Shown: piece by piece, positions 520-62,938 of the stretch
Layout of the letters: each line of letters opens with the position of its first letter
How positions within the stretch are numbered: position 1 is the first letter of the stretch
Assembly (NCBI GenBank): GCA_013115125.1
Contig: JABANN010000091.1
Location: forward strand, 1 to 64,000
DNA length: 64,000 bases
Source: Perkinsus olseni
Lineage: Eukaryota
Reading direction: 5' to 3'
Translations under genes and position numbers: made by a program
Notes under the pieces: model-generated
The model's database searches: none
The model's input: the letters and a program-made list of their open reading frames with translations, nothing else
What the model was told of the DNA's origin: nothing

Positions 520-3500
520 ATGTCCGAGGTCCGCATACCGGTCAAGCTGTTTGTAGGGAAGCTCCCATGCGACTGGGCTGAGGATAACGTTCGGAGCTTA
601 TTCGGACCGTAATAACGGGAGGCTTCGACTGTGTGCTGAGATGCGCGGCGATTGTACCATGTACAGCACGATGTACAAGGAAAGCTTCTACCTATCGAGC
701 GACTAGCGCAGCGACATCGAGGCACTCTCATCAGAGGAAATGGCATCGTCCGCCTTTTCTGGCACTTTTCTGAGCCTCTGGTGTCTTCACCACAGGAGGC
801 GGAGATTTGGGACAGAGCGGCAATCAGAACCCAGACAGATTGGCTCTCGATCTCCTGAGCTTGGTCTTCGTATTATGAGGGGGCCAAGTGACTCCATGTT
901 GATCCCTCGGTCTGATTCCGCCCTTCTCTGTGCGCCCCTTCGATGGCACCGTTGAGTAGACACCGACTGGGGAGGATGCACCCCTCTCGGGTGCTTGGTT
1001 TTTGGTTGGTCTCGAGGCTCGATCTTCCGTCAGTTACGGTGATGTTGAGGAAGTGAGCATCATCAGACCGAAGACCAATCCTGGAAAGGGACAGAAATAC
1101 GGTAGGCGATGGGCTGGAGGGCACGACAAGCGCCGCTGTGTTGAAGTAAAGGATGAGCTCCGCTTCCTCATGAGTCCTATTTGAGATAGCCTATCAGAAT
1201 TACAGTGACCCTATCGCCGATGGGGTCACTCTAATTCTGAAAGTATTAGCTAGAGTAATAGACTGAGTATGACATGTTGCAGTGAAGGGCTTCATAGTGC
1301 GTAGGTCACGGTGGAAAGCGGGGCTTTTTATCATCTACGCTCACTATAATTACAGTAGACGTTCCTTAGAGGGAGTAGAGGGGCAAGGGATTTGCACTGC
1401 AAATCATTTTACTGCAAATTTTGCAGTAAAAGGTTACAGTAGAGGGATTTGCACTAGGTGCCCTTGTGTTACACCAGTGGGGTATTTTGATGGCCTTAGA
1501 TTGGTCCAGTCTTGGTTTGCGAGTGAAAGTGTGGTAAAGAGAGTGAATATTCGAAGTGTCGACTTTAAGTTAGTTTTCGTTCCCTCGCGAGGGTGGAAAG
1601 GCCGTAGTGATCGGTCAGGGTCGTTTTCGTCATTCTAGGTTGTGCTTTTGTGAAGTACGGGGCGATACAGGAGGCAGCAGCGGCCATCGAGGGTATGGCA
1701 GGGAAGCAGACGGTGAACGAGGTACTAGTGGGCTGATGGTAGAATGTCAGACTGTCACGCACATGACCAGGGTTCTAATCCTTCATCTGGAAGTATATTA
1801 CCATACTCCTCAGAGTGCCGGCCCTCTTCAAATACAGTACGCCAACGGAGAGCCAGAAAGGCTGGGACTTCCGGATGACACGGAAGGGGTGGCTCAGAAG
1901 CTATTCGTGGCCAACGTAATACAACGGTTGAACTCGGGCTTCCGCTTGTACAGAGCCTCCTGGTGAAGTGTTCCTTGGTCGGGATTGTGATTTTTCATCG
2001 AGCTATGTTTAATCGTTACGAGATGTGACACAGATGAAAAACGTTATACCTGAAGTTTGTCTAATCGTTTTTCGGGCTTATGACGATTGTTTAGTACACG
2101 TGATAATACACTGGACTACGCAAGCAAGCATTACAGTGCGGTACGATTGAGTGGAACCAGATCTATCGTTACAGCATCGTAGAACTCTGCTTCGTTGGGC
2201 TTATCTTGGGCGTCCCAGAGCTGGCCGAGGAGCTGCGGTCAGCATGTCTGGGGATGGTGATCAGGTACCGGCCGAAGTGGATGATGGCGAACTGAGGAAA
2301 GTTTTTAGCGAGTGGGCCCTTGTCAATATCGCCCGTGCATCGCGGGAGTTGTGGAAATTCAGGTATGGTACGGTTACAGAAGCTTACTGTATTCAACCGA
2401 GGAGACCAGGAGGAAATAGGGCGGCCTTTGTGAGGTGATAGGGCGTGAAGAAATGGATTGGCCGGGAATCGAACCGGGGACCTCTCGCAGGTTCTCGAAG
2501 AAATCCGACGCCCTTCGAGCGATTGATGCTTTGAATGACAAGTTCACCTTCCCGAACAACGACCGTCCACTTGCAGTGAAATGTGCCGAGACGAAGGAGC
2601 AGAGGTACTAGGCGAAGCGAAGCGATTTTTGAATTACTGTTTTCCGAACCCGTTGAATGCAACGTTATCTTCTGGGGAACGGTTTCTGAAAAACGTCGGA
2701 GTGAATCGTAGGTTTTTGCTTTCCGTAGTTTTGAGGATGAAAATCGTGACATTTTCACGCACGATTATGTGGCCGTACTTTTTCAATTCAGAGACGCTCA
2801 TCGACAGGAGATGGACATGTCGCGTTCACAGCAGTCCTCAGCCAACCGGTATAACGGTGACAGCGGTTACGGCCCGGGCCCGGCAGGGGGATTCCGTCAG
2901 CGACCTGTACGTGGTGAAGTGCTCGTTTGCCTGACTGTGTTTCGTGCCACGCCTGTGACGCTTTTCTTGCTCAGTCCCCGCCGCCGGGACCACCTGCTCA
3001 ACCGAGGAAAGCAGGCGATTGGACCGAGTAGTACTTCGGGTGCTCACCAGACTACCTCTCCTGTGTTCGAACAGCGCTTCCAAGATTATCTTTTACACGT
3101 TGAAGTTGATCGTAGAGGCACTAGTGAGATTCGAAACATGTCTATTGAACACCCCCGCTGAGTGGAAGGAGCTGACGTATTGCTATTGAGCCATGACGAG
3201 TTGGTGAATTTCAGGTATCTGAGCCAATCAGACGGCCGGTATTACTATCACAATGCACGAACTGGTCAAACGCAGTGGGATGTTCCTTACGAGGTACTAA
3301 TTTCTGTTTCTGATACCATAAAACCGCGAACTTCTGGGCAGTTTCAAAACATGGGGCCACCGCCTGCTCCATCCCCCCAGCCCCAGCAACAGGATCGGAG
3401 GTCGGTCATGGGCTTTCGCAGAATGAAAGATACGCCTTCTATTGTAGTTACGGTGGTGGATATGGTCCTATGCAGACGCCTCGGGCGCAGCAACAGAGGA

Positions 3501-4605
3501 GGGACGGTCCTATGGGAGGTAGAATTCGGGGTTCCCAACGCTCACTGGGGAGTGCACGTCAACGGGCGACGTTACGTTTTTTATGGTATGTTTGACATAA
3601 CCGCTCTAACAAGCGCGGTACGCTGCGTGAGCAGCACCAGACGCGCTCATATGCCAACTTTCTATGAACGGGCAGAAGTATAACTGGGGAGGGAGCATGC
3701 TAATAGTAGTATACCATCGCTACCCAGTGAGTGAACCCACCCCCCAGAAGCGGGATCACTGTTTTTAATGGATGAGTTACTTATGAGCACACTCCCAGCT
3801 GAATCAACCGCAATCACGAATATGGGGGCTGGTTTGGTGATCCATTAGTACGTGTTTTGGGAGTACCACTCCTTTCCCAAATCTTATTACGCTTTTCGCG
3901 GATATTGTTAAAAGCGGCAGCCGAAGCTCCTTCGTGTTGCTTCCGTTCTCGGGTTCGGCTCCCTCGTCACAAGTCACAGTTATCATCAGTCACTCTTGAG
4001 GCCCGTCTATGGGGACACTGTGGGCGCAATGGGGGACGCTCAGCGCTAGTCTATGGTCTTCGGGAGCGGATCCTTCACGGAGTCGTCTATGGTCGAACTC
4101 TCTGCACTCCTCCTCAGCAAACGTCTTCGTTTATAATATCCCTCCGGAGTGGACTGATGGCGATCTCGTAAGAGAATTCGGCTCGTGTGGAGCAATAAGC
4201 ACTACAAGGTGAGAGAATTTTGGTGCTTCGCTCCGCTGTAAAAATTGACGTTTTTCGCTCAGAGTCATTATTGACTCCCAGACGAACCAGTCGAAGGGAT
4301 ACGGATTTGTGTCATTCCACGAAGTCCGAAGCGCTATGAAGGCGTGTGATACTATGGACGGGTTCATGACCAGCACAGGCCGAAGACTGAAGGTTCAGGT
4401 AATCTTGCTATCTTGCTCTCACTTGCTGATTCCTCAGCAATCTTTGGCAGATAAAGAAGGGAGAAGAAGAGGCTGCTGCTCAAGCGTTGGGGATACCTGT
4501 TAGCCAGGTCAAAGCTCATGGTAAGCAAAGGTCTGCCGCTCGTTTTTTCATCCGAGATTTTCAGCGGACCATGGCGGGTCGGGTAACCGAGCCACTCCGT
4601 ACTAG
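520..4605 (+). CDS. CELF/Bruno- or FCA-like RNA-binding protein, 3 RRM domains plus a WW domain (multi-exon)
   Basis: Manual splicing gives MSEVRIPVKLFVGKLP..|YGDVEEVSII..|GCAFVKY (RRM1), QKLFVAN|VPAEVDDGELRKVF..AAFVR|FSKK (RRM2), DWTE|YLSQSDGRYYYHNARTGQTQWDVP (WW), ANVFVYNIP..SKGYGFVSF (RRM3) and a C-terminal RATPY* with TAG at 4603-4605. GT-AG phases are consistent where checked. Confidence 0.9.
1194..1240. repeat. near-perfect 47-nt palindrome with 1-nt centre, inside an intron
   Basis: TCAGAATTACAGTGACCCTATCG-C-CGATGGGGTCACTCTAATTCTGA. Confidence 0.85.
2454..2490 (-). pseudogene. tRNA(Ala)-like 3' half, antisense within intron 2435-2490 and ending at the 3' splice site
   Basis: Minus strand reads CTGCGAGAGGTCCCCGGTTCGATTCCCGGCCAATCCA-TTTC: anticodon-stem 3' strand, variable loop, B-box/T-arm, acceptor strand with U70 and A73. 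No 5' half is present. Confidence 0.7.
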
Positions 4606-5193
4606 GAATGCTGTTGTACAGTAGAGAATGAACCAGCTTCAGATGACACTGCTACTGCTTCCGTCTCTCATCGAGAAGGTTTGAGTTGTAGAGTTATCAG
4701 CCGAAGGGGAGCTGCCCCTCCTATACTAGTTTTCTCCGTGTGCGTGAGTTTAGTCCAACGCCGGTTCAGGCTTTGTTAGGCCCTTCCCGATGTGCTCAGT
4801 TAGAGACTCTCTGTAGCGTTGATACGCAGTGGGATTAGATGGTTTGTTAAGAACTTTTCCGTATGGACTTCGGTTCGTCAATGGTGGCTAAGTGAGCAGC
4901 ACAGGTCTCGGAGGCAGCCTGCATTATGCAGAGGTATTCAGTAACTCGAAGATTATCGTCGGACTCCGTTACTGTTGCCCAGCTGGTGCACAGGTCTCTG
5001 CATGGAATCAGTGAGCACCTCGAACTGCTCACAGCAAGCTATACGTGGACTGGGGATGTTCTCGCATCGCTTGACTCGAGACGCCGAAGCAGTGGTACCT
5101 TGGCTCAGCTTGACGCTAGTGAATGACTTTATCAGTGCTATGCCGATAGAATCTCTGGATTCCACTCAACCATTGTCTTGAGTTCCCTTAAGG

Positions 5194-8203: not shown

Positions 8204-8847
8204 TTATAGTACTGCCGGGCAGTAACTGCCCGCAATACCAGCGATGCAGCGTGTAGTAGTGGTGGCACAGGGCGTAGTAGTTGTGGCACAGGGCGTAGTG
8301 GTGGTGGCACAGGGCGTAGTAGTGGTGGCACAGGGTGTAGTAGTTGTCGAGGTAGTAGTTGTAGTTGTGGTTCTGGTTGTAGGAGCATTTGTTGTTGTGG
8401 GGGCAACATTGTATCGATAAATATCATATCCCGTAGTAGCGGTTGGAACATGCAGATACTGATATCCATTCTCTATGTAGCAATCGCTGAGAAAAAACTC
8501 ATCATAATATCCGGCCGAATCCTTCACGATTTGGTCACATGAAGAGTTCAGCGTCATGGCAAATCGTGGCGAGCTGGTGCTCTGCTGAAGCTCATATCCA
8601 CAATCATATTCACCTTCACGTAGGTGGCCTTTATAGGGAGTTATGTAAACCCTACCGCCCCGCTGGCGAGTGAACTTGAATTGGAGGATGTCTGGCTCGC
8701 CACTAGAAGAAGAAGAATAGAAGGTGTAGGTTTTATCGATGGGAGATCCCAGTCCACCAGAAGGGTCTTCATTGTCACCGAGGAAGACCTCAGAATGCAC
8801 TGAGCGGCAATGAAGATGAAGTACAGACCAGTTAGGCGGAGGTACAT
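8204..8847 (-). pseudogene. secreted protein with Thr-rich mucin-like tail (TTTTPCA repeats); 1-nt frameshift just after the signal peptide
   Basis: The signal-like MYLRLTGLYFIFIAAQC is in one frame and the body plus tail in another. The paralog at 10053-10493 is continuous across this point (TGCGGCCCTGAG versus TGCATTCTGAG). Confidence 0.7.
8255..8345 (-). repeat. 21-nt coding tandem repeat encoding TTTTPCA, about 4 copies
   Basis: Repeated GTGGCACAGGGCGTAGTAGT-type units on the + strand. Confidence 0.9.
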
Positions 8848-17149: not shown

Positions 17150-20100
17150 TCAAGATTGTTCGGGCTGAAAAAGCAAGTTGCAATGAAATCGATCACGCGA
17201 TCGATTATCCCTCCTTACGACGTGATAGTTTTCGAGTGGTTTGAAGTAGGGATGCAGCATAGCCTCCTTTGGTAGGATACGCGTTGCATGATCGTACCGC
17301 AGCATCTTGTCCAGCAGATCAATGAACTCATTCGACACCTAAAAATCACGGGAAAAATAAATATAAATGAGGCGTTTAATAAACCAATCCTGAAACTCGG
17401 CAACGAGCCCGGAACCGTCGTTGACGTGTAGAAAGCAATTCCAACAGCGAGACTGAACTACACGAGTATCTTATCGAACCGTGGGCAAGGCAGGGTACTA
17501 TAACATCAATGTTACAAAACCGAAAACAATCCCCTGGTCAATACTCATAGTGAAAGTAACTTAATAATTAACATTTTCATGAACGGATTCTTTAAGAATC
17601 CGTTCATGAAAATACTAACTCTTAACAGATTCTTAACACGGAGAATCCGTGTTAAGAATCATTCTTATTGAATGTTTCCGTTAACAAGCCAAAAACGGCA
17701 ATTCGCCAACACGACTTGAGCCCTCACCAAGTGCTGGTTCTCTGCTGTGATGAACTTCTGCCAAGGCTTCCGAGGGTGCCTCCCTAGGATATCGTCAAAG
17801 TTAGGATCTAGGTCTGAAAAGAATACAACTTGTCCGGATCGAACCCACAACCTTTCGACTACTAGCAGGGGCCGATAACCATCACACCACAACTCCCCTC
17901 CTACCTAGGTCGTACTTGTCTAAGTACTCAAACAGCTCATCTGTTCCCAACACGCGCGCGATCTTCACCAATTGATCATAGTTGTCATGGCCTGAGCACA
18001 CCGAGACTGCACAATCACACTAAGATACTCCTAACCACCGAGAAGCGGTCTTAATGAGGTAATACATTGAATATAGGATTTAAGTACTTCTACGAACCAT
18101 CCAAGCGACGCCACTCACAACAAGTTTCCGAATCTCGCCGGGCCTTTGACAGACAGCCAGCCAAAGATTTCGAGGACCCTCCCACAATCATCTTCTACGC
18201 ATTCCTGCAATGCGGGAGAGGCAGCGGTCTATTGACCGCCCCCCCCCCAACGATCAACTTCTACCATCTCCCTCAAGACTTCTTCCCTTCCAGCTCACCA
18301 TGGAAGAACGGTTCTCGCCTAAACGTCATCCCGGCAAGCATGCACCCGAGACTCCACATATCGAGAGAATAGTCGTAGGTTTGAAGATCCACCAACAACT
18401 CAGGTCCCTTGTAGTATCTACCAGCAAGACCAACCTCCACAAGTTCGATGCTCGAGTGCTATTCAGAACTAGGCCAACTGTGATCCTTCCAGACTCGCAA
18501 CGCTGCAGGGAGAGTGAATCTCTTATACCAAATTTTCCCCTAATCACAGCAGACCAATACCGACCTCTAGGAAGGAAACTTTTGTAAACACGTACGGGTT
18601 GCGCCCTCCACCACAGCCATCGAAATTGAATTCGCGGCCCGTAACCGCTACTACCTGCTGGCCACTCGGACGTTGTATTCTCTATGAGGATGGTAGAACT
18701 CTGCTAGGCCCCAATCGATCAAACGCAGCTTGCGATGGGCATGATCTGAGAAAAAATACACACAAAATGCAACATGCCGGGATCGAACCGGGGACCTACC
18801 GATCATAATGTTATGTGGCTTCACATCTCTGTGAATTATACCTTGAGAGTGGCAGAAGTCCAAGGCCTTCAATATCTCCCGCATGTAGTATCTGATGCAA
18901 TTGGCGCTCGCCATTTTAATCGATATTCATCCCTCAGCAGGATCCCACCTGATGTCCATGTCCGTTAGAGTCGGGTAGAGAGTTTTGAAGTCGGTGTTGT
19001 CAACATACTCGAAGACCTGAGCGAACCAAGGAGGACAAAATCAGTAGCAGTGATCGAACTGAGCGCTTCTCACGGTGCTGCTGAGTCCAAAGGAGCACTC
19101 ATTCTACTCACAGTACGAAAACACGGTTATGATGAAGACCATGGCCAAACAACACAGGCACTCCCTCGGACAATTTCATCGACATGTCGATCGTTATGAC
19201 GATCCAGACTGTTATCATGATCACCATGGCTAAGGGATGAGCGGACAGGACAGATGGCGCGCCTCAAGGCTCTAGACAACTGCTCGAAACGGCAGGTACT
19301 GAGCTACACCCCAGCCTGGTGGGAGTCCGAATATGAGAGCAACACATTTCCTACTATGAGAACAGTATGATAACAGTTTTGATACAGAATCATTATTATG
19401 ATGATTTTATGATAACAGGACACCCATCGCCAAGTTCGAAACCCTGTCCAATGGTCAGTCTACATAGCGGCCGAATTCAAGAGTTAAGGAAAGCCGCATC
19501 TCTCTTCCCAACCATCAGAAGTAGTTCCGATCGACAAAGTAATGATTTCTTACCAGACTTGGTGTCTTCGAGTTCGGGTCCCTCACAACATCATACAGCT
19601 CAACCACGTTAGTCCCCCCGCAAAGATTCTGCAAGATCTTGATCTCGCGCTTGATCTTCTTCTTCTTCACTGGCTTGAGAATTTTTATGACACACTTCTC
19701 GCCAGTCGGCACGCGGATTCCTGACAATTCAGCGGAGCTGCGGCGGGTCGGGCGAGTGAGGGAAGCCACTACTACCCTCGAAAACCTCAGAGTACTTCCC
19801 GCGCCCTATTTTTCGAATTACTTCGTAATTATCTTGGTTCCTGAGGAAGACCGATCATCCACAAAGAGAGGAGAGAACAATCATTTCGAAGTGAAACACA
19901 GGACGAGGTGCTCATTAAACTCTACTACGTCGGCCAGCCAGTTAGGACTGATACCACTTCAGGAGACAGGCGCGTCTCGAATGACGACAAAGTTGTGGCT
20001 TCGCGCTCTAGTGACAAAATTCTTTCGAGCACGCTACCATACAACGCCACGATCTATGAAATCTTCCTTAAAGAACCAGCGACCATTATTGCCTTTTTAC

Positions 20101-26454: not shown

Positions 26455-26466
26455 CTCGAGGAGAGC

Positions 26467-39142: not shown

Positions 39143-40608
39143 CTACTTGTTTTTGATGACACTAGCTAGCGCTGCATGATCCAAGATGAGTTGTATCTTC
39201 CCTCCGGTGCTGGTGGGCATGTCAAGCGCGACTCTTTCCTTGCTGCCGGGAGACACCGTCAAGGATTGCGATGCTAGTGCTTCGCGAGCAACCTGAAGGG
39301 CGGAGCGAAGCGATGCATGTTTCGCGATTTTCCACTCGTGAGAACACTTACAAGGTGGGGAGGGAACACCACTTGCTTGATCGGGAGCTCGACTTCTACG
39401 CTGACGGTCTTGGGGGGCACCCACGAGGCCTCCGCCGCCTCCTTAGCGAGAAGGATGTTCTCAATGGAGGACACAGGAACGTAACTGAGCATAAAAACAC
39501 AGACGATTGAATCGATCCCGAACATGAGGCTGGGACCGTAACTACTCAGCCAGAAGGAACCCCTCACGACAACCTTACAAGCCCGAGGAGGCGAATTTTA
39601 ACATCTCCAATACGCAACACTCGACCGAGCTAGTTTTAATCGCTGTCGTACTCCCAACAGCTCTGCGCGTTACAGGGCAGCTCAACACCGCAAGAACGGC
39701 AAAACAGCAAAACAAGAAATAAACCTATGGCCGTGTCACCATTATACGATAAATTGAGGTCGACAACGGCTATGTATACCCAAACTTCAGCTTGTATACG
39801 CCACGCCTCCGCCTAGAAGCCCAACAAGCGTATCTAAGCTCGAGCCTTGGGTCGCGTGTTGCAAAAACTACACCCCAAACGTCTTCTCCCGGCGGTCCCT
39901 GTCCATCCCCCCCGCAAGCGACTTACGCCACATCAGCCATCGACCCATGCTCCTTAGCATCGATGAGGATATTCATCTCAATAAAAAAACAAATCCCAAA
40001 CACCATGGCCATGACTGGTATGGCAATGTCTAGTAGCCTGACAGACGACGAGGAATCGAGAAGCTCCAGCAGAGGCAGGCTTCCCACAACACTGGTTCAC
40101 CCGCGGATACCCCCGGAGTACTGTGGAGTTCCATCGGTCTTGAATCAAGCGGCGATTTTCGAGAAGTGAAATTAGTTACTTACTACCATATTTTCACGAG
40201 AAATTTCAGCGAACGCCATTGCTGCTCATAAGCAGTAGAAAAATTGTTAATTGCCCCGTCGTGCTACGACGACATCCGGTGTCGAACCCCGGCCAGCGAG
40301 GGTTGAAGAAAAGGATCTACTATCCCGACCAGGATTCAAAGGAGCGACTCTTACTTGACGAACAGCCGATACTGAGCCTCTAGTCGGCCCCATGGCGCTT
40401 TCCCGTCGTCATCCGCTGTCAGTCCAGTAGCCTCCTCGATACTATCTGAGACGGTGTAAAATGCAGGCGCTGGGCATCGAACCCGGGATCTCTCACCGAT
40501 TTCCGGGTTCCTCCTCTTATGCGGTTTCCCTGCGGTCGCTGCAGCAACCAGCAGGAGAAGTATCAAAACTATAGCGTTGGAGAAGAAGCATACAAGGGCT
40601 ATTCGCAT
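39143..40608 (-). CDS. hypothetical signal-peptide/membrane protein, multi-exon
   Basis: MRIALVCFFSNAIVLILLLLVAAATAG (signal-like), then LLDIAIPVMAMVFGICFFIEM (TM-like) and further AG..GT-bounded open segments. Confidence 0.5.
40462..40496 (-). pseudogene. tRNA 3' half forming most of putative intron 40446-40496
   Basis: GTGAGAGATCCCGGGTTCGATGCCCAGCGCCTGCA-TTTT-ACACCGTCTCAG. Confidence 0.7.
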
Positions 40609-41117
40609 GGGCGCAGAGAACTAAACGTTGAGGAAATGCGAGATGACCAAGATGTGCAAGATTGCCTCGAACGCAACCCGCCAGCAGCGCTTAAAGGAGT
40701 GATCCTCTTGAAGGGTCAAGTACGAAGACTCAAATATCCTCCTGCAGACAAGAATGAGCAACTGATTCCCATAACAATATACCACCTCCCGGGATTGAAC
40801 CCACGACCTATCGCATGTAAGTCGCGTCTCGGGGACCCCACCATTCAATACCATAACATCTTCCGCGCCAGGACCGTACCGTGGAAGCCTCGAAACGTCT
40901 GATTGACGTCATGCCGGCTGATCAACGGCACATATCTGCACAGAAGAGGAAGAATCACCGCTTCGCTCCGCTAGACAACGACCGCGCGAGTAGACAAACT
41001 TCTGCCAATCGCCTCCGACCGCTCCCCGAGGACACGTGCTAGCCCCGAGAAAGGGCGAAAGCGTTTCCGGTATGATGTTGAGAGCACAGATACGGTGAAA
41101 ACATGATGCTACGGTAA

Positions 41118-41186
41118 CTCTACTCTGGATCGAACCAACGACCCCACAAGGAACGACCGTGCGCTCTACCACTAGACCCGTAATTC
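41118..41186 (-). pseudogene. decayed full-length tRNA-like sequence (GTT at the anticodon position)
   Basis: GGTCTAGTGGTAGAGCG (D-arm) CACGG-TCGTTCC-TTGTG (anticodon arm) GGGTC GTTGGTTCGATCC (T-arm). Confidence 0.6.
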
Positions 41187-41209
41187 TCAGATTTCGACTC
41201 CATCCCTTC

Positions 41210-43263
41210 TCACCCAATCTTCATCCAGAACTTAGCAACTTGTTGATTGAGCATCTCCACATAAGCCGATCGGCATTCTTTATACTTCATCAACCACTCA
41301 CACAACTGGGCATCCAAGAACCTCCCGAGACCCCGGCCGCGGCAATCCATCTCGTACCCTCGACGACCTGCAAACACAGATGAAATCCAATGTGAAGTCC
41401 AACCTAGCCAATTCAAAAATTCTCAACGTACCAATCGCTTTGATGGATTGTCACTCCCGTTTCAAAATTTTACTTCATAGAGCAACAGAGCGGTGGAGGG
41501 CCTGTCCAATCTCCACTACTTCCCGATCGACTTAATAAGCTTCCATCTTCTTCCAGATGATCGCCATTTTCCACTCCCGCTTCGCGAATTTCCGAATTTC
41601 AGGTGCTACTTGCTTGTTCTACCTCCACTGGAAGCTCATGAAATTGATCGGGACATGGTGGGGACTGGACACGCCCTTCACAACTCTAGTGCACTACTAT
41701 TGCCATACACTCTCTCCAGAAGCTCAAACCCAAACCTGCTGCTAGCCGGGCCCCCCGGGTCCCAGGGGGGGGGCGTTCCTCGGAATGACGCAACTATACC
41801 CCGCTTACAACAACCCATCCCAAGAGCAGGAATTTCGTCCGATGGATGAACTTCGAGTGAGTGTAACGCCCCGCAAGCACGGGAGCGATGCGTACGGTAA
41901 ATCATCATTACCCCCGACTCGGTGGCACCGAGAGGTCGTCACGATCGAATTTCGCGAAACCTTCGGATTTTCATAATTTGCGGTTCTCATTGATAACTTC
42001 ATTTCAGGGCGCAAAGAGATGTCCATAACGAATGAAATACGGCCAAAAAGCCCGCCCAGGATTCGAACCCGGGTCATTACCTCTAAGAGCGGGGTATTCA
42101 ACGCTCTTAGCTATCGTAAACAACAATATCATAGCATCCCGACTAACGGCGTCATATCGATACAGACAGGAAGCCAGTACGATTGGCGACGATCCCTTGG
42201 GCGCATTGCGGCGGTCATCTTGTATCTGCAACTACATCTCGTTCAACAGGTAATACCACTCCTCTCCCTACACATAAGGAGGCACAGTTGATGGTGGAAC
42301 CAGCGTATCGTCCTCGCTCTCCCACTTCCTTCAGTTTGCACTCCGGGAAGCCCTCCGCGAACATCGAAGCTCCGAGGCAATTACGTATGTCAAATACAAC
42401 CTCGTTAACCTTAAGAGACATCAACTTCTAGCGAAGCCTCGCCCTATTGTCTATTGTCTATTGTCTATTGTCTATCTCTCAATAGACGCCAGAAGCGACA
42501 CGAATGATTGGACAGAAGATACCGCATCCAGTCACTGATGGTCGTGCCAACGTACAATCTCGACGACATCCAGATTTCGGCCAGCCCGCTAAGCGTAGCG
42601 GAGCAGGAGATCGCACGGGAGGGGATGATCCCGACGGTAGACAAGGAACGTAAAGAAAATGCGCCAACTAGGGGTCGAACCTACGGCCTCTACGTCGAAT
42701 AATCACACGACCCAGCAAAGCCCAGCACATTTCGCCGTGCTTCTGTCCTGCGGTTTGTCTGTTGTGTTAATCCCGACCCTCCCTAGACCTTTACTACCAA
42801 ATACACTTGGCTCTCTCCTCGTCCCAAATCCCCTTCACCAACCTTCAAATTCAACCTTCTCTCATCAAAATCAAACTGAGCAACAACCAGTTCGACCCCT
42901 GGCTGGCCCCTCCCCGACAGCCCCACCTGTATCGAGTACCCAGCCAATTTCTCCCACAGAGTTTTCCTTCCCGCGCGACAGTCTCTCGCCAGCTCCCCGA
43001 TCTCATCATCTTCGAACCAGAATTTTCTCCTACCACTTTTCTTGCAGCTCCCAGACGTATCTTCGCACAGCGAAGATTTTCGATCGACCTTGGGAGTCGA
43101 TCGCTGGGTCAGCCGGGAGGAACCCTTCGTTCCTGAACGCGATTCCCTCACAACGATCGAGCGCGAAACCGCTGGGCTCACGTCTCGTTCCTTGGCGACT
43201 CCCAAGACTTAGTCGTTTCCGAGCTTCGATTGCCGCTTTCCGTGGAGTGCACCGGCGAGACAT
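41210..43263 (-). CDS. hypothetical multi-exon gene with a GNAT acetyltransferase-like exon near its 3' end
   Basis: The exon near 41210-41380 reads CRGRGLGRFL..AYVEMLNQQVAKFWMKIG (GNAT motifs A and B). Upstream exons are only tentatively linked. Confidence 0.45.
42046..42121 (-). pseudogene. decayed tRNA-like sequence with a Pol III-type T-run
   Basis: GATAGCTAAGAGCG..GACCCGGGTTCGAATCCTGGGCGGGC-TTTTT. Confidence 0.55.
42445..42475 (+). repeat. (CTATTGT)n microsatellite, about 4.5 units
   Basis: Seen directly. Confidence 0.9.
42660..42693 (-). pseudogene. tRNA 3' half
   Basis: GTAGAGGCCGTAGGTTCGACCCCTAGTTGGCGCA-TTTT. Confidence 0.7.
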
Positions 43264-43621
43264 TGAAGGAGAATGGGAATGAAAACTCCACTCGCAAGAG
43301 TATCTTAGGTCAATCATAGGTCGTAGCGGAATAAGAACACCACCCGGCTCCAGTCTCCGAGACGGCCCCTCGGTCGTCCCAACATTCCCAGAATGCGCCC
43401 TTCCCAAAGTGCTGGTAGAACCGTCAGGGTAGAGATCCAATCCGAGCTGAAAAACATGTTTCATATTCTGGTCAGCTTTCGATCGGCGGAAACGACAATG
43501 ACTCTGCGCTGTGACCAACACGAATTGAGGAAATTGAAGTGAGAGCAAGAGTGCAAGATTCTCTCTACGCCCCAATGGGATCACTTAGCCGGGCTAAGTT
43601 AGCCCCTCTGGAAGGAAGGTC

Positions 43622-51400: not shown

Positions 51401-51599
51401 ATCACGCTATAAACGACACAGCAAAATTTTAAAATCGGAGACAATTATTGTGTAATATAGGGACAATCTCTACACTGCGCTAGATATCCAAAATTGTGTA
51501 ATCTATTAAGTACATAAACGTATCCTTCCAGTTGTCCTGTTGCACTACCAATAGGACCCGGATTTCTCGGATCGGCCGGTTTTCTAGCGCGCCTTATGT

Positions 51600-54103: not shown

Positions 54104-54289
54104 GCACTAAGAGAATGCGTGCTCCGTTCTTTACACAAAAATTCATGGCAAATTAGTCATTCATCCGGCATGGAATCTTGTTATGAAGAGAATTTCCACG
54201 AGATGTCATTTTCTTAGTTCCTGTTCCGTGAACACTGACAAGAACGACAAATAGAGGAAACGTTCCCGGGAAAGCGACATCCTGCGACT

Positions 54290-57200
54290 TCACTCACCAC
54301 TGACCACCACTCTAGCACTCCCTTCAATCGCCCTGGCAAGCAGCTTGGGGTCGGCTCTCAAACCTGGAGTGGCATGACGCCACGATCGTCCAAGTGACCA
54401 CGAACGATCACAGTCACCAGATCTGAAAAAAACAACTACTCCTTCTTCCTTAAGTTCGGGGAAACCGGAACACCTGCGTATCTCATACAAGCAAATTATC
54501 ATAAGTTTTACACTCCGTTGGTATGAAGAGAGCAGGCTTCACCGCCAGTCGAGAGACACAACTCTCCCTACCCACCGAACGACTGAGGCTCCTCCAACGC
54601 CCTAATCTCACCGTGAAATCAACACCATCACGGAGGCCGATGAGGATGGATGAGTGACAGCTAGCTGCGGACACTTGGAGCCCCATACTTCAGCATCTTC
54701 TCTTCGTGGAAAGTCAATACCTTCGCTCGGAACTGAAAGGCGTACATCATTTACCTCCGTCCACTTCCCGAAAAAATTTCGCAAGAGCGCGGTGATTCGG
54801 TGAATTTCCGAATTTTCCAGGCTGTGTCCCTCCTGAGGGTTTAACATTGACGACGGATTTTCTGTTGAACGTAGCAGTACGGGCTAGACTCTAGCCGCTA
54901 GAGTGACACTAACAACATGACCTCAATTGGAGAAAGATGTTGATGGGCAACACGCAGAAAGAGCAAGCTAAGTGGTCTCAGAATGGCGAGTTCACATGGT
55001 TGTGTAGCACTGTATGTACCGAAGGCAAATTGCGAATTGTTTTCGCAGCTGGGATATAGCTCCATCTGTGCGTCCTTGTCCACTAGGTAACCCTTATACT
55101 GTTCCGCCTTCTTCAGTCGCCTCGGATGCTCTATAGCATACTCATTGCAAAGCAGTGAAGGCTTATGTTCTAGATACAGCTGTTCACACCTGCGGCCTCC
55201 TGGAAACTTATGGACGCACTGGCTAAAATAGTTCATGTGTTGATACTGCTTCTTCGACTCACACCCACCCTTAGGGTGCTCGTCAAAAATGCCTCTCATC
55301 ATAATTCGACGCGGCATATCTGCTTCGTCCATCATCAGAAACTTTTCTCTTCGATGAATTTGATGACAGCGGCTGTGGCCGCGCTGGAAGAGTTGATGCC
55401 GACAGCCGGCGGCTGATGGGCAGCCGAGGTTATCCACAGATAATTCAACTGATAAGCTGTGCGCGCCTTGAGGCCAATTGCTTCGCTGCTGACAGCTCGT
55501 AGCCAATGAACTTTGCGGCAGCTGAATAGCAAGCGGTGTCAGCGTGAGTCTCGAAGATTAGGCTCCGGTCGTCACCACAGTGCGCATCATATATAGCATC
55601 CTTGATACCGAATAGGTTAACAGCCAGTGCCATTGTTAAGATAATCCTCGATGTTTCTAACCATACTGCCGGGGCATCTAACGACGAGCATCCCAAACGC
55701 GTCCCCTTGGCGCGCACATCGGGAGTGCTCTCTCCTCCCGTGTGGGCAACAAAGGAGTTTTCGAAGACTCCGCGGGAAAGTGTGACCAGCCTTCTCTCAC
55801 CACGAGCCCTGCGTTCATTCAAATGGTACCCTCCTTCGCGAAGGCGAGAAGGCCGCGGAGACTTTGGGGCGAGAAGTCGTACAGTCTTCAATTAAGGATC
55901 GCTGATGGGCGATCACATTACGAAACGCACACAGAAGGAACCCCTGAAGCTAACCCAGCTTACGCCATGCTATCCCTCCATCATCCGAAGTAAACGAGAC
56001 CTGCGACTTCGACGGACATTGCGGGTCGTAACCGAGACAGAGCAGACTGAGAAACGGTAGACCAATTACGCACTTTCCAAGATAAACTTCGCGTAGAGCC
56101 CGCCAGAAGATCCGTGAAGAATAGTATTTCCGCCGGAAATTTTCCGGAATACTCACAAACGCACCATCGAGGAGTTCTGAGAACTCCTCAGAGGAGTTCT
56201 GAGAACTCAGTTCTCTACGACGGAAAGCTGCGTCATTTGCCGAGTAAATTTTGCCTACGTCCGTGAGTTTCCTATTTGCAGAGAAGGCACATCCGGGCTG
56301 AGAGAAAACAACCTGGTCTTACACTTTGTCGTCGTCCAAGACCGTCATTCGGGCTCCCCATCGGTTCCCAATATCAGACGGAAGTCGCGAGGTTACATCC
56401 GTCCAGGTTCTCCCGAGATCATCGCTCATCCACAGATCACCTCGGGCCCGACCTGCTTTAGACAGCGCGCGCCCGAATGATCGATAATTACGAAACCTGC
56501 GCCTCACATCCTCCACTGTAACCACCGTAAACAAGTACTCGCTTTTGCGAGGGAAGAAAGATGCAGGCGAAATCCGCCCTTGGCTGCCAAGGGGCATGCT
56601 CAACCCGGCCTAAGCGTCTGCATGCGTGGTGACTTTTCGGTGACTCTCTCACATTCAAAGCGTCTGCCACCATCAGTAGAAAGCCACACATCATTGAGAG
56701 GGTCACCCTCGGCACTCCAACCACCAAGTACCTAAGAAACACCGCCAATAATGATCGTGTAAATGAGCTCCTATCTGAGGGTTTGCAACTAAAACGCATC
56801 CGATGCTGATTCTAGTCACGCCCATTCCACACATCTTGATAATGTCAAAGATGCGCTCCGAGCACATCTTCCACATCCCTCTCCGACACCATAAAAATCA
56901 ATTTCATAGTTTTGAAAATTACGAGTCAAGCTCCGAGGAAGCAGTCAAGCTCATTCTTTCCCGTCCTCATTCGCTTCTCAGAGATCTTCAACATACAAAA
57001 GGCAATCCAACCTTGGCCGCAACCCACCATGAGTATCTTCCCATCCGGGCTCCCACAAACTCCATGGTCGTCCCTAGGGCACCAAGCCGAGGACGAGCGA
57101 ATCTAAAGTCGAAGCGCACCCGTCACCAAAAAATCGCGCCACTCAACAAATTATTTCCCACCGTCCGCCAAGTTCTCCCACCATCGTCACTTCGACAAAC

Positions 57201-58632
57201 GTCCGAGAAAAGCACCACCGCTTCCTGCTCCTCTTCGTCGACGTCGCTCGAAGACTCCCAAGACGACTGAAGCAGCGAGTCGAGAAACTTTACCGCGCGC
57301 CACGAAATTGTCGCCTACAAAGCTGCCCGTGGCCAGTGAGTTTATACTGGAGGAGGCTGTCGAGCTTGAATCCCACTGAAAAAAAACTACACTCGCCGTG
57401 TGTCACTCGGACACAATCTGGGGCTCGTTCTGCTCGTCCTGAAGTAGCGCTAAGAACTTGTTCAAGACCTAGCAAGAGTTCCAAATCTACAAAACGGAAA
57501 CACACCCATTAAATATGCCTTCAGTTAGATGGCCACTGCTGCACAGGAAGCAGCTCTCTCACACAGCCAGAGACAAATTCAACAAGCAGTGGGGCTGCTC
57601 GATAATCTTCACCGCAGGGAGCACCCTATGTACAGTCGGAATACAGAGATCATATCAAGTTCCACAACCACGCAACAAAATCGATCAGCTGATCGATTTT
57701 GACCTCCCCACCAGTCCCTACACCATCAAACGTTTCACCACACAACTGCCGCCCTCCTAACAGGAACAAAGTGCCATCAGTCAGAGCGAATACACCATGA
57801 CCAGTACCTACAGCGCGGGCGTCTTGGAGAACTTTTCCGGAGAAAGATCTCAATTTCTCCTTGCGTTTTCCTACGCCGTTTCTGTTCAGTAGCCGTGAGT
57901 CCATCGACACTGACTTGACCATCACAGACTACTGACCGCCAGGTGGACCCCAGAAGACAATCCGTGCCTGAGAAAAATGCAAAATACCAGCCCATTTCAA
58001 ATGAAACTCAGATCGACTCCCGAAACCTTAACTAATCCTCAGCGCTAATCGGACTGAACCTTAGCCTTAGCCTTCGGCGTTGGACACGCCCGAGCCCCAA
58101 CTTTGAACTGAGATCGACTATATATACCGAAACCTGAACTAATTCCCGATCCTAGTCTAACTAAGTCGGTTTTCGGCGTTGAACTCAGACAAACATGTTG
58201 AACTAATATCGACTCCACAACCAACTCCGATGTGGAACTGGAACTGAAGGCCCACAATTCATAAAGATACTACCCAGTATCACAGAAAACTGCTCCTTTT
58301 TACTCTCCTCCTTCCTACTGCCGTTCTCCGCTGCGTCGTAACCTGACGGAAACCTACACAGCTGAAGATTTCCATAAAAGGCCCAAAATTTTGGATCCGA
58401 ATATTTTCCCTCGGCATGTCGCTACGTTTTTTCCCCCGTGGTCCAGCTCGGACCGCGGATCAACCATTGGACGGCTTGCAACGTGGATCTTCAGCGCTTG
58501 GACCGTCCGAGCACAGAAGACTCTTCCCCGAAACATACTCGAGATTTCCGCGACTCGCTCACCTTTCTGCATCATTTCGGCATGACGGCGTAAAAGAGCC
58601 GCCCTGCCAAAGATGGGCCCTACAGCCATCAT
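54290..58632 (-). CDS. BNR/Asp-box and Kelch-like beta-propeller repeat protein, multi-exon, limits uncertain
   Basis: Repeated SxDxGxxW boxes (SDVCRSDDGGRTW, DLWMSDDLGRTW, TSDDGGIAW, RSWSLGRSW) alternate with APWQPRADFAC..VLVYGG, AWCPRDDHGV..ILMVG and LFLLGG. Confidence 0.65.
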
Positions 58633-59244
58633 CGGAGAAATTGTAAAACCAGTGAGAACCTCCGAAAACCTCTTCCAACCTCTTTCATATCATACCACCT
58701 CACCTCCAAGATACCCTACCGCACAACACTAGTGCGCAGCCGCAAGAAATTCAACTGAACCCAACTCTGCTCACCGCGAAGGAAACAAGCGACGCTGAGA
58801 TTCTTCCGCTTATTTTCAGCGGACCCCCGGAAGGCCCCTTCGGCAGGGATACGTCTTTCTTACAACATAGATCAGCAGTCGACGTCGTTGCGTAAGATCT
58901 CAATGATGACGATTTCCAGGGAAAAAAGGAAGTTGTGCATAGCGGAAGAAATAGTATCAGTATTATTAATACAAAACTGCGAACTACGGGTTGCTCACTA
59001 ACTTCACTGGCGATGATGATGGTACTGAAACCGAAGGAACCGCGCAGACGATTCGAAGAATGATAAGAGCAAGCATACAGTGTCATCGACGAACAAGCCT
59101 TTACAAGAATCGTACCACAACTTATGGACTGCAAACGGTTGAAGATATTTCCACGACGACCGCGAGCTCTCACCAAAGCGCACAGGCATCAAGGTAAGAT
59201 ACGAGAATCGGAACAACACAGTGACACTCCGAAACGTAGGAGGG

Positions 59245-62200
59245 TTACATCGCTGTTCGGGCAGGCATTCTGTTAGGAAGACCCGAGCGGGGCGACGGCA
59301 GGGGCACTCGGGAGCGAGGACTCGGCATAAAATTGGACGCCGTTTGTGATCGTCTGAATGCGGCCGGGGACTGAGGAAGAATTCGAGTGAAGAACGATTT
59401 GGGAAAATTATGGTACGCAGAATGAGCAGGGCGAGCCAGAGCGAGAACAGTAGTGAAACCCGTGGCGTTTTCCTAGGTTAACAGATTCTCGGTAGAATCA
59501 GATGAAAATCAGCGATTGTTCATGGTAAAAAATACGAAGGAGAAAACGAAAAAACAATAAAAATTTCTGTTTCCGCGCACTTCTGACAAATTACTCATCG
59601 CCAATCACCGACAGAGGCGACCGCGAGGGGAACCCCAATGTAGTGGATACTCGAGGGGAGTGAACCGAAAAAAACAGATTCAGACGAGTACCATAATTTT
59701 CGACTTGACTTAGCGGCATTAGTCATCCGAAAGGGCATGGCATCCGCATACGTACAACCATGTAATGTAGCAAATACTCGAAGTAAGCAAGTATCCCGAC
59801 TATGCATATCAGACGAATACCACAATTTTCGATAGTGCACGACATTCCACCATACCACAACTCTCCCAACTACTACCCGCGCAGGCCTCCTCGATATCGG
59901 GCTTCTCGTGGCCAACGGAACTGTAGGTGGCAATGATGATGGCATGGGGGAGTGACCCTGCCATTCTCCGACCGAGGACCCCTCCCCTGAAGTTTCTCGA
60001 GGGACATTGGGGTAGCTGTAGTTGACCCTTATCGGATGCTGCGGAGGCATCCCGCCGCCTCCGCCGAACTCGCTGCTCATGGACTCCTCGCCGCGGATGA
60101 CCCGACTGGTCGATCTGAAGATAATACTACTGTACTTATACAAAGGAAAAACACCACTGTCATCATGACAGTGAGGGCCTAACACTGAGTCTCTCATGAC
60201 AGTGTCATGAGAGACTCAGCGTTAGGCCCTCCAAAATTTCACCCGTGCTGCACTGCTTTCGGGGCTAGCCGAGGCCGAGAGAAACTTATCGATTCCAAAA
60301 CAAATACGATCAACTCGATCCAGAAAAAAACTCCACGCTTAATTTTCACCCGTGAATCGTTCCCGATTCACGAGGGAGCCGGCGGAAAATTTAAGAGCCG
60401 AAAAAACAGCTCACGCCGTCGAAAAATTGTCCCTACTTCTCCACCAAGCTACTTTTTCACTGAATTATTACGAACCACGAAAAAAGAAGTTTACAAGAAA
60501 AGAAGTTTTGAAATTTACAAAAAAATCCTGTGGATTCGTAGAAAGCCTGAGGCCGAATTTTATATCACGGAATTCCACAATTATCGCTCATTCACAAGAA
60601 CATACGCGCGCACAGCGAAGATTCCAATCCCCACTCACCGCGTAGACCGTGAAGTCGTGTCGCCTCTCGCGTAGTTGTAAACAGTAGACCTAGTCGTACA
60701 GTCTCCCCCCGCGTTATATCGATTGCATGATCGATTTGTCGCTTCTCCTCCGCGATACGATCTCCCCGTTAAGTCGCCCACATGCGATCGGTTAGTAGCG
60801 TCCCCTCGGTAAGAGCGGTTAGTCAAGTCGCCACGATAAGATCGATTAGACCGACTCGTGGCATCACCACGGTTGGATCTTATTGAACTGAAACAGAAAC
60901 TCATACAATCAATACTTCTATTTTCCCAAAAACAACTCGAAGCTCTGAAAATTTTCCGCAAAAAAGATGCGCACAACAACGAATTCAATGAGCTGTTTAC
61001 GAGTGCGAGCCACCCTTAGGTCACGGCCTGACTGAGGGGAAGGCATCCGCAGGCAGAAACGATTCCGAAGAGCGGCGAAATTCTGAATATCGCTCGACTT
61101 CTACACCGTGATTCACGGTGTAGCTCACGGTCCGTGAACCCACAGAGGGCGGAGACCACACTAAATCCGCCAAAAACATGTGCGAACGCTCCCGGACGCT
61201 TACAAATATTTTTACCGCGCACCTGGCCACTTGACCAGGCTTTATTACTGTTCTCTCTCTTGTCGTCTATTGGCCATCTTCTCTTCAAACAGCTCCTCGC
61301 TCCACTTGCGTGCATTCGACTGGCTCACCAGGCTCCGCACAGACGCCCCGCCGTTCATGCCGTTCGGAGAGCCTGCAACTCAGAAAATCACCACCGATGC
61401 GCAGACGCACGAAACGACCAAGTAGGAGAATCTTCACCCTCTTTAGTGCACCGCACGCTATAAAGAGTGGAGTCGGAGAAGGCACTCAGCGAATTCCGAG
61501 ACCAGTGGCGACGGGAATAGGGGCTGGATAAGAGGATAAGCGAGAGAGGATGATCTTCGTCGGGGCTGTCCTCCTTTCGCTCGGACTCGATAGGGGTCAC
61601 ACGGAACGACCAACTAGGAGAATTGCCTCGCTATAAAGAATGCTTTCATTGTTGTGATGCCTCACTGTACACCACTGTACAGTGATAATCCGCATTGTTT
61701 TGTTTCTATAGCGGCGGGATAGCCACTGGGTGACGGATACGACAGGAAAAATCGCCACGGTTGGTGTAAAAGTTGGCCGATATCATCTCCCACACAGTCG
61801 TAGTGGTCAACACCATAGTCTCTCTTCTAAAGAGGTAGTACGAGAGAAAGGCGCAAAGACCGGCAGAACCCTCTCTCCGAGGAGGTGTGGTCCAAGACAC
61901 GAGCGATTGCAAGAACTATTGATTTCACTACCACTGGTCGGCCGCGATAAGTCGGGGCCCACCTTATAGTCTCTCACCGCTGCAAAATATGAGTGAGGAA
62001 AACATTACATCGCGAGTGCAGGAAGGGGAAACACAAGTTGGGAAATGAGAAATGTGGAAGTGAAGTTGGAAAGCTTCGTTGTGAAATACAAACTAAAAAA
62101 CGAAAACTGCGGGATGCAATCACCGACGGGAAAGGCGAGATTTACGTGAAAATTTGTGGAACTGAAGCGAAAAAAGGGAAATAAGAGTCGTAAGTGAATT

Positions 62201-62384: not shown

Positions 62385-62427
62385 GACGTGATGGCAAGGT
62401 CGTAGGGTAATAATAATACAAACAACA

Positions 62428-62737
62428 ACAAGGACGACCTAAAGATACCATCACACTAACGACAAGGACGACCTAAAGATACCATCACACTAACGACAGA
62501 AACGACCTAAAGATACCATCACACTAACGACAAGGACGACCTAAAGATACCATCATGTTTACAAGGACGACCTAAAGATACCATCATGTTTACAAGGACG
62601 ACCTAAAGATACCATCATGTTTACAAGGACGACCTAAAGATACCATCATGTTTACAAGGACGACCTAAAGATACCATCATGTTCACAAGGACGACCTAAA
62701 GATACCATCATGTTTACAAGGACGACCTAAAGATACT
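62428..62737 (+). repeat. minisatellite, 10 units (3 of 34 nt, then 31-nt units)
   Basis: Core ACAAGGACGACCTAAAGATACCATC followed by ACACTAACG (x3) or ATGTTT/ATGTTC (x6); the last unit is partial. Confidence 0.97.
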
Positions 62738-62901
62738 ACCTTAATGACCTTCAAACAATTTGTCCGGGGTATTTAATTTCGGAGAAGTTTCAAAGAACCA
62801 TTTCGGTGAGTTGTATAAGCTATGAGGAGGCCCCGAAAATCGCCTAAAACTCGCCAGAGCGAAAGTGACGACAAAAATGACATCAAAAAAAGCATGAGAA
62901 A

Positions 62902-62938
62902 TGACGCAACTAGGATTCGAACCGGAGACCTCGGCTAC
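62902..62938 (-). pseudogene. tRNA 3' half
   Basis: CAG|GTAGCCGAGGTCTCCGGTTCGAATCCTAGTTGCGTCA-TTTC. Confidence 0.65.

Follow-up and report, generated by a model that had tools for sequence, protein, structure and literature searches.

Several spliced introns of Perkinsus olseni are made up largely of the final third of a tRNA gene, suggesting that introns can be seeded or rebuilt by stray tRNA-gene fragments

The origin of new spliceosomal introns is a long-standing open question, and those documented so far are duplications, rare cases of organellar DNA capture, and a small number of introner families that resemble transposons. A 64-kb stretch of the Perkinsus olseni genome (assembly GCA_013115125.1, contig JABANN010000091.1, positions 1 to 64,000; here, the window), on which the whole analysis rests, raises the question of whether pieces of tRNA genes can serve as such a source. 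The original prediction, made for this DNA from its sequence, was that short introns in the window are built from tRNA 3' halves that supply the splice site, in either orientation. As described below, in this intron-rich eukaryote the final third of a tRNA gene makes up most of several spliced introns in the window, which suggests that introns can be seeded or rebuilt by stray pieces of such genes.

The window contains eight clear tRNA-gene 3' parts, all on the minus strand and all recognized by nhmmer at E values of 6e-4 or lower, as well as three weaker tRNA-like copies. The clear copies comprise the variable loop, the B-box, a 7-nt acceptor strand, the discriminator, and a T-run in register. 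The motif GGTTCRANYCC, proposed along with the original prediction for comparison with shuffled sequence, occurs 7 times in the window versus 0.60 expected, a count reached in none of 100 shuffles; GGTTCRANNCC, which corresponds to the B-box consensus of ETC/TFIIIC sites, has 9 perfect matches versus 0.9 in block shuffles. Among 13 matches to GGTTC[GA]ANNC, TTT is found at +22, one base past the expected discriminator, in 6 (background, 0.030), ATTT at the discriminator position, +21, in 5 (background, 0.0045), and an AGGTC-like variable loop in 7; none has CCA. The arrangement of a B-box, then 3 + 7 nt, a discriminator, and a Pol III T-run in register, without CCA, points to tRNA genes or pre-tRNA as the source, as originally predicted. 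The acceptor strands and trailers differ among all copies, and none of 23 self-BLAST pairs joins the copies or reveals a common body, terminal repeats, or target duplications. The pieces are therefore derived from several tRNA types, as had also been proposed, and not from one SINE family.

None of the copies has the full cloverleaf of a functional tRNA gene. ARAGORN found no intact tRNA genes in the window, and Rfam searches returned no tRNA match at the gathering score or at E values up to 10, including in the 3.2-kb segment 40000-43200 and the 121-nt segment 17795-17915. The latter covers an intron of the casein kinase 2 (CK2) gene with a putative D-arm-like 5' part; the 5' parts that had led some copies to be seen as near full length were not confirmed, having no Rfam tRNA match even in this 121-nt search. 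Several other identities were rejected or disfavored. When split or giant-intron tRNA genes were considered, relaxed ARAGORN searches joined the halves to distant 5' pieces across "introns" of 444-1689 nt, with poor stems. Permuted or trans-spliced tRNA halves were discarded on account of the terminator that comes after the 3' half and the conserved coding exon upstream, and organellar origin was judged unlikely, by reasoning from the GC-rich, nuclear-type arms. ARAGORN made 4 calls, all spurious, on the 80 metagenome loci discussed below.

Table 1. tRNA-like pieces in the window and the introns that hold them
Feature	Positions	Strand	tRNA-like content	nhmmer E value	Evidence and surroundings
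RRM-domain gene intron, 56 nt	2435..2490	+	Antisense tRNA 3' part, 2487-2450; ATTT in register; tRNA-side boundary (~tRNA position 39) adjoins CAG acceptor	1.2e-7	GT..AG; predicted sole splice keeping frame through RNP1-like motif
CK2 intron, 91 nt	17814..17904	-	Sense tRNA-like piece, 3' part 17857-17820	1.4e-5	Predicted from tblastn exon ends 17906 and 17823
CK2 intron, 54 nt	18746..18799	-	GT, variable loop, T arm, acceptor strand, A, T-runs, CAG	1.5e-7	Predicted; 18-residue gap precisely there in homologue alignment
Intron of ORF downstream of GNAT-like gene, 51 nt	40446..40496	-	GT and tRNA 3' part 40494-40458 at start		Donor: X7 RNA contig block stops at 40497, RNA depth 0 at 40475. Probable acceptor: remaining 202 nt of contig equal 91 + 111 nt if 40446-40496 and 40038-40354 are removed; joint itself absent among 15 of 54 RNA joints listed
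tRNA 3' part in transcribed spacer, nonintronic	40779..40813	-	Between GNAT stop and next ORF	5.6e-4	Within continuous RNA block 40497-40935; stop codon just upstream
GNAT-gene intron, 278 nt	40936..41213	-	Weak decayed tRNA-like piece; B-box region 41143-41119, D-arm-like stretch ~41179-41161	0.094	Joint in RNA runs X7 and X8
GNAT-gene intron, 713 nt	41368..42080	-	First 36 nt are tRNA 3' part 42080-42045; donor GT at ~tRNA positions 41-42; TTT in register	1.6e-5	Joint in X7 and X8, canonical after cut +2
GNAT-gene intron, 388 nt	42410..42797	-	Interior tRNA 3' part 42692-42656, ~100 nt from donor	4.5e-7	Joint in X7 and X8
51-nt intron	42876..42926	-	Weak antisense T-arm-like stretch (42890-42906, plus strand) adjoining acceptor	2.2	Joint in X7 and X8
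tRNA 3' part	62898..62938	-	ATTT in register	2.4e-7	CAG/GT just before

Six of the eight strong copies lie inside introns backed by RNA contigs or protein homology: two in the CK2 gene, one in the RRM gene, two in the GNAT-like gene, and one in the ORF downstream of the latter. Four introns show the U2-type features, GT..AG ends and removal from RNA, and are skipped by the RNA contigs of two runs (Table 1). The limits of the CK2 introns were set by homology (the alignment gap and exon ends) and those of the RRM intron by the reading frame; Pfam searches with the two short RRM-gene exons taken singly gave no match, and neither did the surroundings of the 62898..62938 copy. Most of the originally predicted cases withstood this examination. 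The alignment gap bore out the limits of the 54-nt CK2 intron, the reading frame favors those proposed for the RRM intron, and the half placed at 62902-62938 is genuine. The half at 42660-42693 is genuine as well but is located inside the 388-nt intron and not at a splice site. The putative intron at 42876-42926 is spliced, although its tRNA likeness is weak, and for that at 40446-40496 the RNA data place the donor, whereas the acceptor comes from contig-length bookkeeping. The predicted spacing of 11-16 nt between the splice site and GTTCGA was found in every case, and a new one, at 42080, shows it too. The 713-nt RNA-supported intron that starts with a tRNA half, the second CK2 intron (17814..17904), and the intron-free state of the CK2 positions in homologues had not been part of that prediction.

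The tRNA-gene-derived fragments thus reside inside spliced introns, and in four of the six intronic strong copies, including the one in the 713-nt intron, the tRNA-side boundary lies flush against the exon; a fifth flush boundary is that of the weak antisense case. In the 713-nt intron, the tRNA piece lies within 3 nt of the donor, a placement expected approximately once in 130 if its position were random. The introns of 51, 54, and 56 nt hold tRNA pieces of 36-38 nt, with a remainder of 13-20 nt. This is far below the size of the smallest intron (46 nt) among the RNA-supported introns listed, so simple insertion into an older intron can be ruled out for these three. Sense orientation is seen in 6 of the 7 strong copies with a known host and in 5 of the 6 intronic ones. 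Local donors follow the consensus GTRRG, often in the form GTAGG, and GTAG is the start of 6 of the 15 RNA-supported introns listed. The claim that tRNA halves supply the splice site applies to several introns made almost wholly of such a piece but does not extend to two halves found deep in long introns and another in a transcribed spacer. There are about as many free copies as splice-associated ones, which is a poor fit to random insertion combined with a spliceability filter, and a single 2.7-kb stretch contains six or seven copies, a clustering not predicted by a genome-wide random process.

Both CK2 positions are intron-free in other eukaryotes, among the homologues examined. At the position of the 54-nt intron (between IMI and DH), none of the 80 metagenome loci has an intron: 78 continue without interruption, and in 2 fungus-like contigs an intron lies six codons farther downstream. 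At the position of the 91-nt intron, there is none in 79 homologous metagenome loci; these counts take in distant homologues, and many of the loci may represent cDNA or belong to protists with few introns. None of the 12 aligned database homologues has an insert between IMI and DH, and at least 4 of them look like exon-bounded genomic ORFs. When the CK2 read-through ORF was used as a protein query, the best identity was 69% and no close relative turned up. On a shorter time scale, a strain with ~1% divergence is colinear over 39500-46999 without gaps, and at least three of the copies are covered by one with 4-5% divergence. Both strains carry every copy that could be checked, without presence/absence polymorphism, and no target-site duplications, terminal inverted repeats, or other insertion scars are visible at the junctions examined; both observations count against capture. 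The exon repeats GATCG/ATC and ACCTAG/ACCTAG beside the two CK2 introns were considered as scars and rejected, since they add no residues and the protein length there equals that of the homologues.

The favored explanation, held tentatively and with slightly less than even confidence, is that protein-coding genes captured fragments of nuclear tRNA genes, which turned into spliceosomal introns. Insertion would itself have created the introns. The fragments, from several isoacceptors, start in the anticodon-stem/variable-loop region, at approximately tRNA positions 37-44, and run through the T arm, acceptor strand, discriminator, and T-rich trailer, followed by 3 to 22 nt more (in one case, ~670 nt). 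In this organism, such a fragment could amount to a ready-made short intron. GT plus an AGGTC-type variable loop could be read as a native donor because of its likeness to the local GTRRG consensus, and the T-run of the Pol III terminator could act as the pyrimidine tract before the first AG; in the antisense orientation, the same sharp tRNA-side end would fall at the acceptor. A sharp end inside the tRNA gene and a ragged downstream end would fit a DNA fragment released where a fork or a polymerase stalls at a tRNA gene, or else a cDNA stopped at the modified base 37 and captured at a break. A far broader scheme is doubtful. It would have the tRNA genes of this lineage shed 3' fragments with a sharp end at about position 37-44, which are routinely captured in transcribed genes and born as working introns through GTAGG donor mimicry and the terminator serving as a pyrimidine tract, with the B-box then kept by selection, making up a non-transposon, genome-wide source of introns that also seeds intragenic TFIIIC sites.

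The original proposal of intron gain from tRNA-gene fragments is partly supported, by the tRNA origin, the flush splice sites, and the intron-free CK2 positions; the data do not separate de novo gain from repair or replacement of older introns, which can be considered nearly as likely as capture as new introns. In the form that seems possible, albeit still questionable, the introns are old, and the fragments are filler added during repair of breaks inside them or were brought in by template switching at GTAGG/AGGTC microhomology, the interior being mostly replaced while selection kept only the splice sites. The copies deep in long introns and in the transcribed spacer show that insertion into existing noncoding sequence does occur, the donor consensus overlaps the variable-loop sequence and so provides microhomology at the flush end, and unscarred exons along with the persistence of the checkable copies in both strains would be expected. 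However, near-total replacement would have to occur separately in three or four introns of ~50 nt, and the 80 and 79 loci and 12 proteins lack introns at the CK2 positions even though other intron-like boundaries occur near this exon in those proteins.

Another reading, close to the alternative of intronic TFIIIC B-box sites in the original prediction, places function before origin: the pieces could be kept as intragenic, ETC-like TFIIIC sites or other Pol III-related signals via the B-box, with the tRNA origin secondary. It appears unlikely but has some indirect support in the state of the arms. Of the 8 strong copies, 7 have a perfect B-box, while the T stem, with 3-5 of its 5 positions paired in the nine copies tabulated, falls short of the five pairs of a functional tRNA in 8 of the 9, the only copy with 5/5 being that at 42080-42045 (42069). 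The outer T-stem pairs (17 of 27 paired) are no better than those obtained by re-pairing strands between copies (15.1); in this permutation test for T-stem chimeras, which has low power, 28% of permutations reach 17. The one-mismatch scan of the window, with 29 matches versus 22 expected and none with two further tRNA features, yielded no population of copies with a decayed B-box. Yet the copies were detected by their B-box, which creates a strong ascertainment bias; broken stems could equally result from chimeras at the T loop or from selection to avoid hairpins in short introns, and the flush splice-site boundaries are left unaccounted for. Spread of a mobile element derived from tRNA, whether a SINE or a family of introner-like type, moving as a unit with its own splice sites, is the least probable alternative and a very improbable one. 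The intron-sized units with a GT start, a CAG end, and a strong sense bias would suit such an element, as would the exon junction ATCG/.../AT common to two copies. Nevertheless, the divergent acceptor strands and trailers and the absence of a shared body, terminal repeats, or target duplications in self-BLAST argue against it: the single head with common body and tail of a tRNA-derived SINE was not found, copies in this window are alike only at generic tRNA positions, and the 713-nt intron has the same DNA depth as the neighboring sequence.

Each of these features has partial parallels. Tailless retropseudogenes of tRNA or pre-tRNA in mammals are likewise dispersed partial copies that lack a poly(A) tail; unlike the copies described here, they keep the 5' part, carry target-site duplications, and are not known to be tied to introns. 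Yeast ETC (extra TFIIIC) and other B-box-only sites similarly have a well-conserved B-box that stands by itself, with no functional tRNA gene around it. ETC sites are mostly intergenic and are not described as tRNA 3' halves with a discriminator and terminator. In introners (Micromonas, Aureococcus, Dothideomycete fungi, and others), as proposed here, inserted DNA is precisely spliced out and gives new introns, and the units are also approximately intron-sized and carry or co-opt splice sites. However, introners form near-identical mobile families, often with terminal repeats or target duplications, whereas the copies in the window each come from a different tRNA type and share no body. The neointrons of Daphnia and an intron of mitochondrial DNA origin are similar to the proposed case in that unrelated cellular DNA was captured in an exon and spliced, and filler-DNA captures at double-strand breaks also have a source that can sometimes be identified; Daphnia neointrons often have short direct repeats at their ends, which were not seen at the junctions here. 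The main text of an introner survey (PMC9860276) does not contain the word "tRNA," and neither does that of a paper (PMC4202315) that names mitochondrial DNA and introner-like transposition as known intron sources. In the literature searched, spliceosomal introns composed of tRNA halves were not described in any paper found, so that tRNA-gene pieces as a source of introns have no precedent there; work on insertions at break sites in relation to tRNA genes offered general background only.

If the capture of tRNA-gene fragments is correct, it would provide introns with a recognizable source, drawn from many tRNA genes and accounting for both splice signals, so that the birth of introns would become directly testable. 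Intron gain would, in addition, be connected with the fragility of Pol III genes or with reverse transcription there, and the origin of isolated TFIIIC sites inside genes could come to light.

No tRNA gene was detected in the window by ARAGORN or, at the gathering score, by Rfam; tRNA models that ARAGORN returned at lowered thresholds were spurious. The B-box motif GGTTCRANYCC nevertheless occurs seven times against 0.60 expected, a count reached in none of 100 shuffles. Among 13 matches to GGTTC[GA]ANNC, TTT stands exactly one base past the expected discriminator in six (background 0.030), ATTT is found at the discriminator in five (background 0.0045), and an AGGTC-like variable loop lies directly upstream in seven. 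This in-register arrangement identifies the copies as 3' parts of tRNA genes, including Pol III terminators; CCA is present in none of them. A search profile trained on seven copies returned eight strong matches (E≤6e-4), namely the training copies and a new one at 40813-40779, all on the minus strand, as well as three weaker matches. Every copy has a different acceptor strand, and none of the 23 pairs in a self-BLAST of the window involves a tRNA-derived copy, so the copies stem from several tRNA types rather than one repeat family. For the 5' portion of the longer copies (n=3), a 121-nt Rfam search around one of them gave no tRNA match. The acceptor strands, the self-BLAST, and the in-register T-runs thus bear out the original prediction of a tRNA-gene origin from several types, without CCA.

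The analyzed material comprises one 64-kb window of an intron-rich eukaryote (GC ~0.50), contigs of four public runs over 39500-59400, and distant homologues. Recognizable genes encode an RRM/WW protein, a UbiA-type enzyme, casein kinase 2 alpha (CK2), a PTR2 transporter, a rhodopsin-like protein, and a subtilase. A high-copy repeat (46958-47577) with terminal inverted repeats (46958-47045 versus 47577-47476), numerous loose ends, and DNA-run depth ~70x that of adjacent bins is a probable small DNA transposon or MITE. There are also an inverted segmental duplication (8430-8844 versus 10053-10465; 416 nt, 81% identity), an inverted repeat with 39 kb between its copies (24406-24544 versus 63862-64000; 139 nt, 94% identity), and tandem repeats at 62424-62736 and 36793-37128, the second flanking a 98-N run (36984-37081). 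Short near-perfect palindromic hairpins are numerous (60166-60233, 17561-17660, 52289-52339, 1191-1243, 48900-48952, and 56172-56208); one CK2 intron contains two of them, and 60166-60233 matches a miRNA family with 40 bits, far under the gathering score of 89.

The CK2 and RRM introns are defined by homology and by reading frame, respectively. A tblastn search with a homologue's ORF yielded ten CK2 exons, and 18 residues are gapped in the homologue alignment precisely where 18746-18799 lies, confirming the predicted 54-nt intron. A second CK2 intron (17814-17904, 91 nt), missed originally, also carries a sense tRNA-like piece. In the RRM gene, 2435-2490 is the sole GT..AG splice that preserves the frame through an RNP1-like motif, in agreement with the intron proposed there; its tRNA part is antisense and adjoins the acceptor.

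The public runs X7 and X8 are RNA assemblies whose contigs omit minus-strand segments with GT..AG ends. They define a minus-strand gene with five exons and a 201-residue open frame, one exon of which weakly resembles the GNAT acetyltransferase family (E 0.0018; 19 bits, below the cut-off of 20.7). A further copy is located just beyond its stop codon, within the transcribed spacer.

Introns of the GNAT-like gene as delimited by RNA contigs
Feature	Position	Strand	Remarks
GNAT-like gene intron	42876-42926	-	51 nt; weak antisense T-arm-like stretch against acceptor
GNAT-like gene intron	42410-42797	-	388 nt; copy ~100 nt from donor
GNAT-like gene intron	42226-42271	-	46 nt
GNAT-like gene intron	41368-42080	-	713 nt; GT then immediately tRNA 3' part
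GNAT-like gene intron	40936-41213	-	278 nt; contains decayed copy

The X7 contig extends into a downstream ORF, with 40497 as the precise end of its aligned block. RNA depth drops to 0 at 40475 and over 40225-40336, and at 39959-39971 it matches the depth of the X7 contig; the remaining 202 nt of this contig correspond to 91 + 111 nt once 40446-40496 and 40038-40354 (both GT..AG) are removed. The block end, the depth, and the length bookkeeping support the predicted 51-nt intron 40446-40496, a joint that is not among the 15 of 54 listed. A single RNA contig (40497-40935 to 39927) links the GNAT-like gene with the downstream ORF, which encodes a hydrophobic protein, and could represent either overlapping transcripts or an assembly merger.

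Introns hold six of the eight strong copies and the transcribed spacer holds one, the remaining one being 62898-62938. Sense orientation prevails, both among copies with a known host (6 of 7) and among intronic ones (5 of 6). In four strong cases (donors 18799, 40496, and 42080; acceptor 2490), and likewise in the weak case 42876, the tRNA-side end, within the anticodon-stem/variable-loop region, is 2-5 nt from the exon edge; the opposite end always has extra sequence past the T-run, 3-22 nt or ~670 nt. The predicted distance of 11-16 nt between splice site and GTTCGA holds and corresponds to tRNA positions 37-42. Donors of 15 RNA-supported introns (39.9-58.6 kb) follow the consensus GTRRG (GTAG in 6, GTAGG in 4), so GT plus the AGGTC variable loop resembles a native donor; the T-run together with the first AG after it makes a plausible acceptor region. 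The 51-, 54-, and 56-nt introns each contain 36-38 tRNA-derived nt, leaving a remainder far under the smallest intron seen (46 nt). Introns listed for 39.9-58.6 kb form two apparent length classes, ~46-67 nt and 150-1800 nt. The flush sense introns 18746-18799 and 40446-40496 both end in TCTCAG and both interrupt ATCG/AT, giving ATCGAT in the spliced mRNA.

Of the 8 strong copies, 7 have a perfect B-box, yet at least one T-stem pair is broken in 8 of the 9 tabulated copies. Outer T-stem positions are paired in 17 of 27 cases, which is not better than the 15.1 expected on re-pairing strands between copies (28% of permutations reach 17). No population of decayed B-boxes was seen in the window: one-mismatch B-boxes number 29 versus 22 expected, and none has two further tRNA features. 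Intact B-boxes with broken T-stems possibly reflect B-box selection via TFIIIC binding, the alternative offered originally, counter-selection of hairpin formation within short introns, or chimeras that arose at the T loop; ascertainment of the copies through the B-box weakens any conclusion from this contrast.

Metagenome contigs were queried with the CK2 ORF reading through the 54-nt intron, and 80 loci were kept. The site of this intron is uninterrupted in 78 of them; in two fungus-like genomic contigs, an intron occurs six codons further downstream rather than at the site itself. These fungus-like introns (L045:1117-1362 and L071:3001-3237) have no tRNA likeness. The second CK2 site is uninterrupted in all 79 loci with a match. 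No close relative was found among 5.8 billion predicted proteins (best identity, 69%), and the 54-nt site is uninterrupted in all 12 aligned proteins (12 of the 120 listed). In four of these (P0009, P0014, P0021, and P0040), homology ends right after RYFK, so they can be read as probable exon-bounded ORFs of intron-bearing genomes. The uninterrupted sites suggest that the tRNA-bearing CK2 introns are not widely shared, at least within a comparison set that is distant and possibly includes many cDNA or intron-poor sequences. A ~1% divergent strain is entirely colinear and gap-free over 39500-46999, and coverage in a 4-5% divergent strain includes, at a minimum, the copies at 40483, 42681, and 42900; no presence/absence polymorphism was seen.

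Among known kinds, the closest are introners, intron gain from filler DNA at breaks, tailless tRNA retropseudogenes, and ETC sites. Judged by the defining features tested, the copies do not qualify as functional tRNA genes. Descent from a single mobile family, SINE or introner, is improbable, as there is no shared body, terminal repeats, or target duplications among the copies in the window. Full-text literature searches gave no description of spliceosomal introns from tRNA halves; "tRNA" is absent from the main texts of an introner survey (PMC9860276) and a Daphnia study (PMC4202315).

The reading favoured, albeit tentatively, is that captured tRNA-gene fragments became introns, with GT plus the variable loop serving as the donor and the T-run followed by AG at the acceptor. 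It is preferred because insertion into older introns cannot yield the short introns, the fragment forms the very start of the 713-nt intron, the CK2 positions appear specific to the lineage, and both splice signals, in the form used locally, would come from the fragment. Alternatively, older introns may have been repaired or replaced with the help of microhomology shared by the GTAGG donor and the variable loop, a reading that is less probable but nearly as good and that accounts for the missing scars and for copies in intron interiors. Of the eleven copies, six or seven fall within 2.7 kb, a clustering unpredicted by a random genome-wide process. For this single window and homologues that are all distant, the observation behind the proposed intron gain from tRNA fragments is confirmed and extended, and its interpretation supported in part. 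If capture took place, DNA released at forks or polymerases stalled on tRNA genes would fit as the source, as would cDNA stopped at modified base 37, because the copies end sharply in the anticodon-stem region and raggedly downstream. The case would then be one of intron origin from captured DNA; tails of DNA-released fragments would match parental 3' flanks, and similarity of cDNA-derived ones would end at the T-run.
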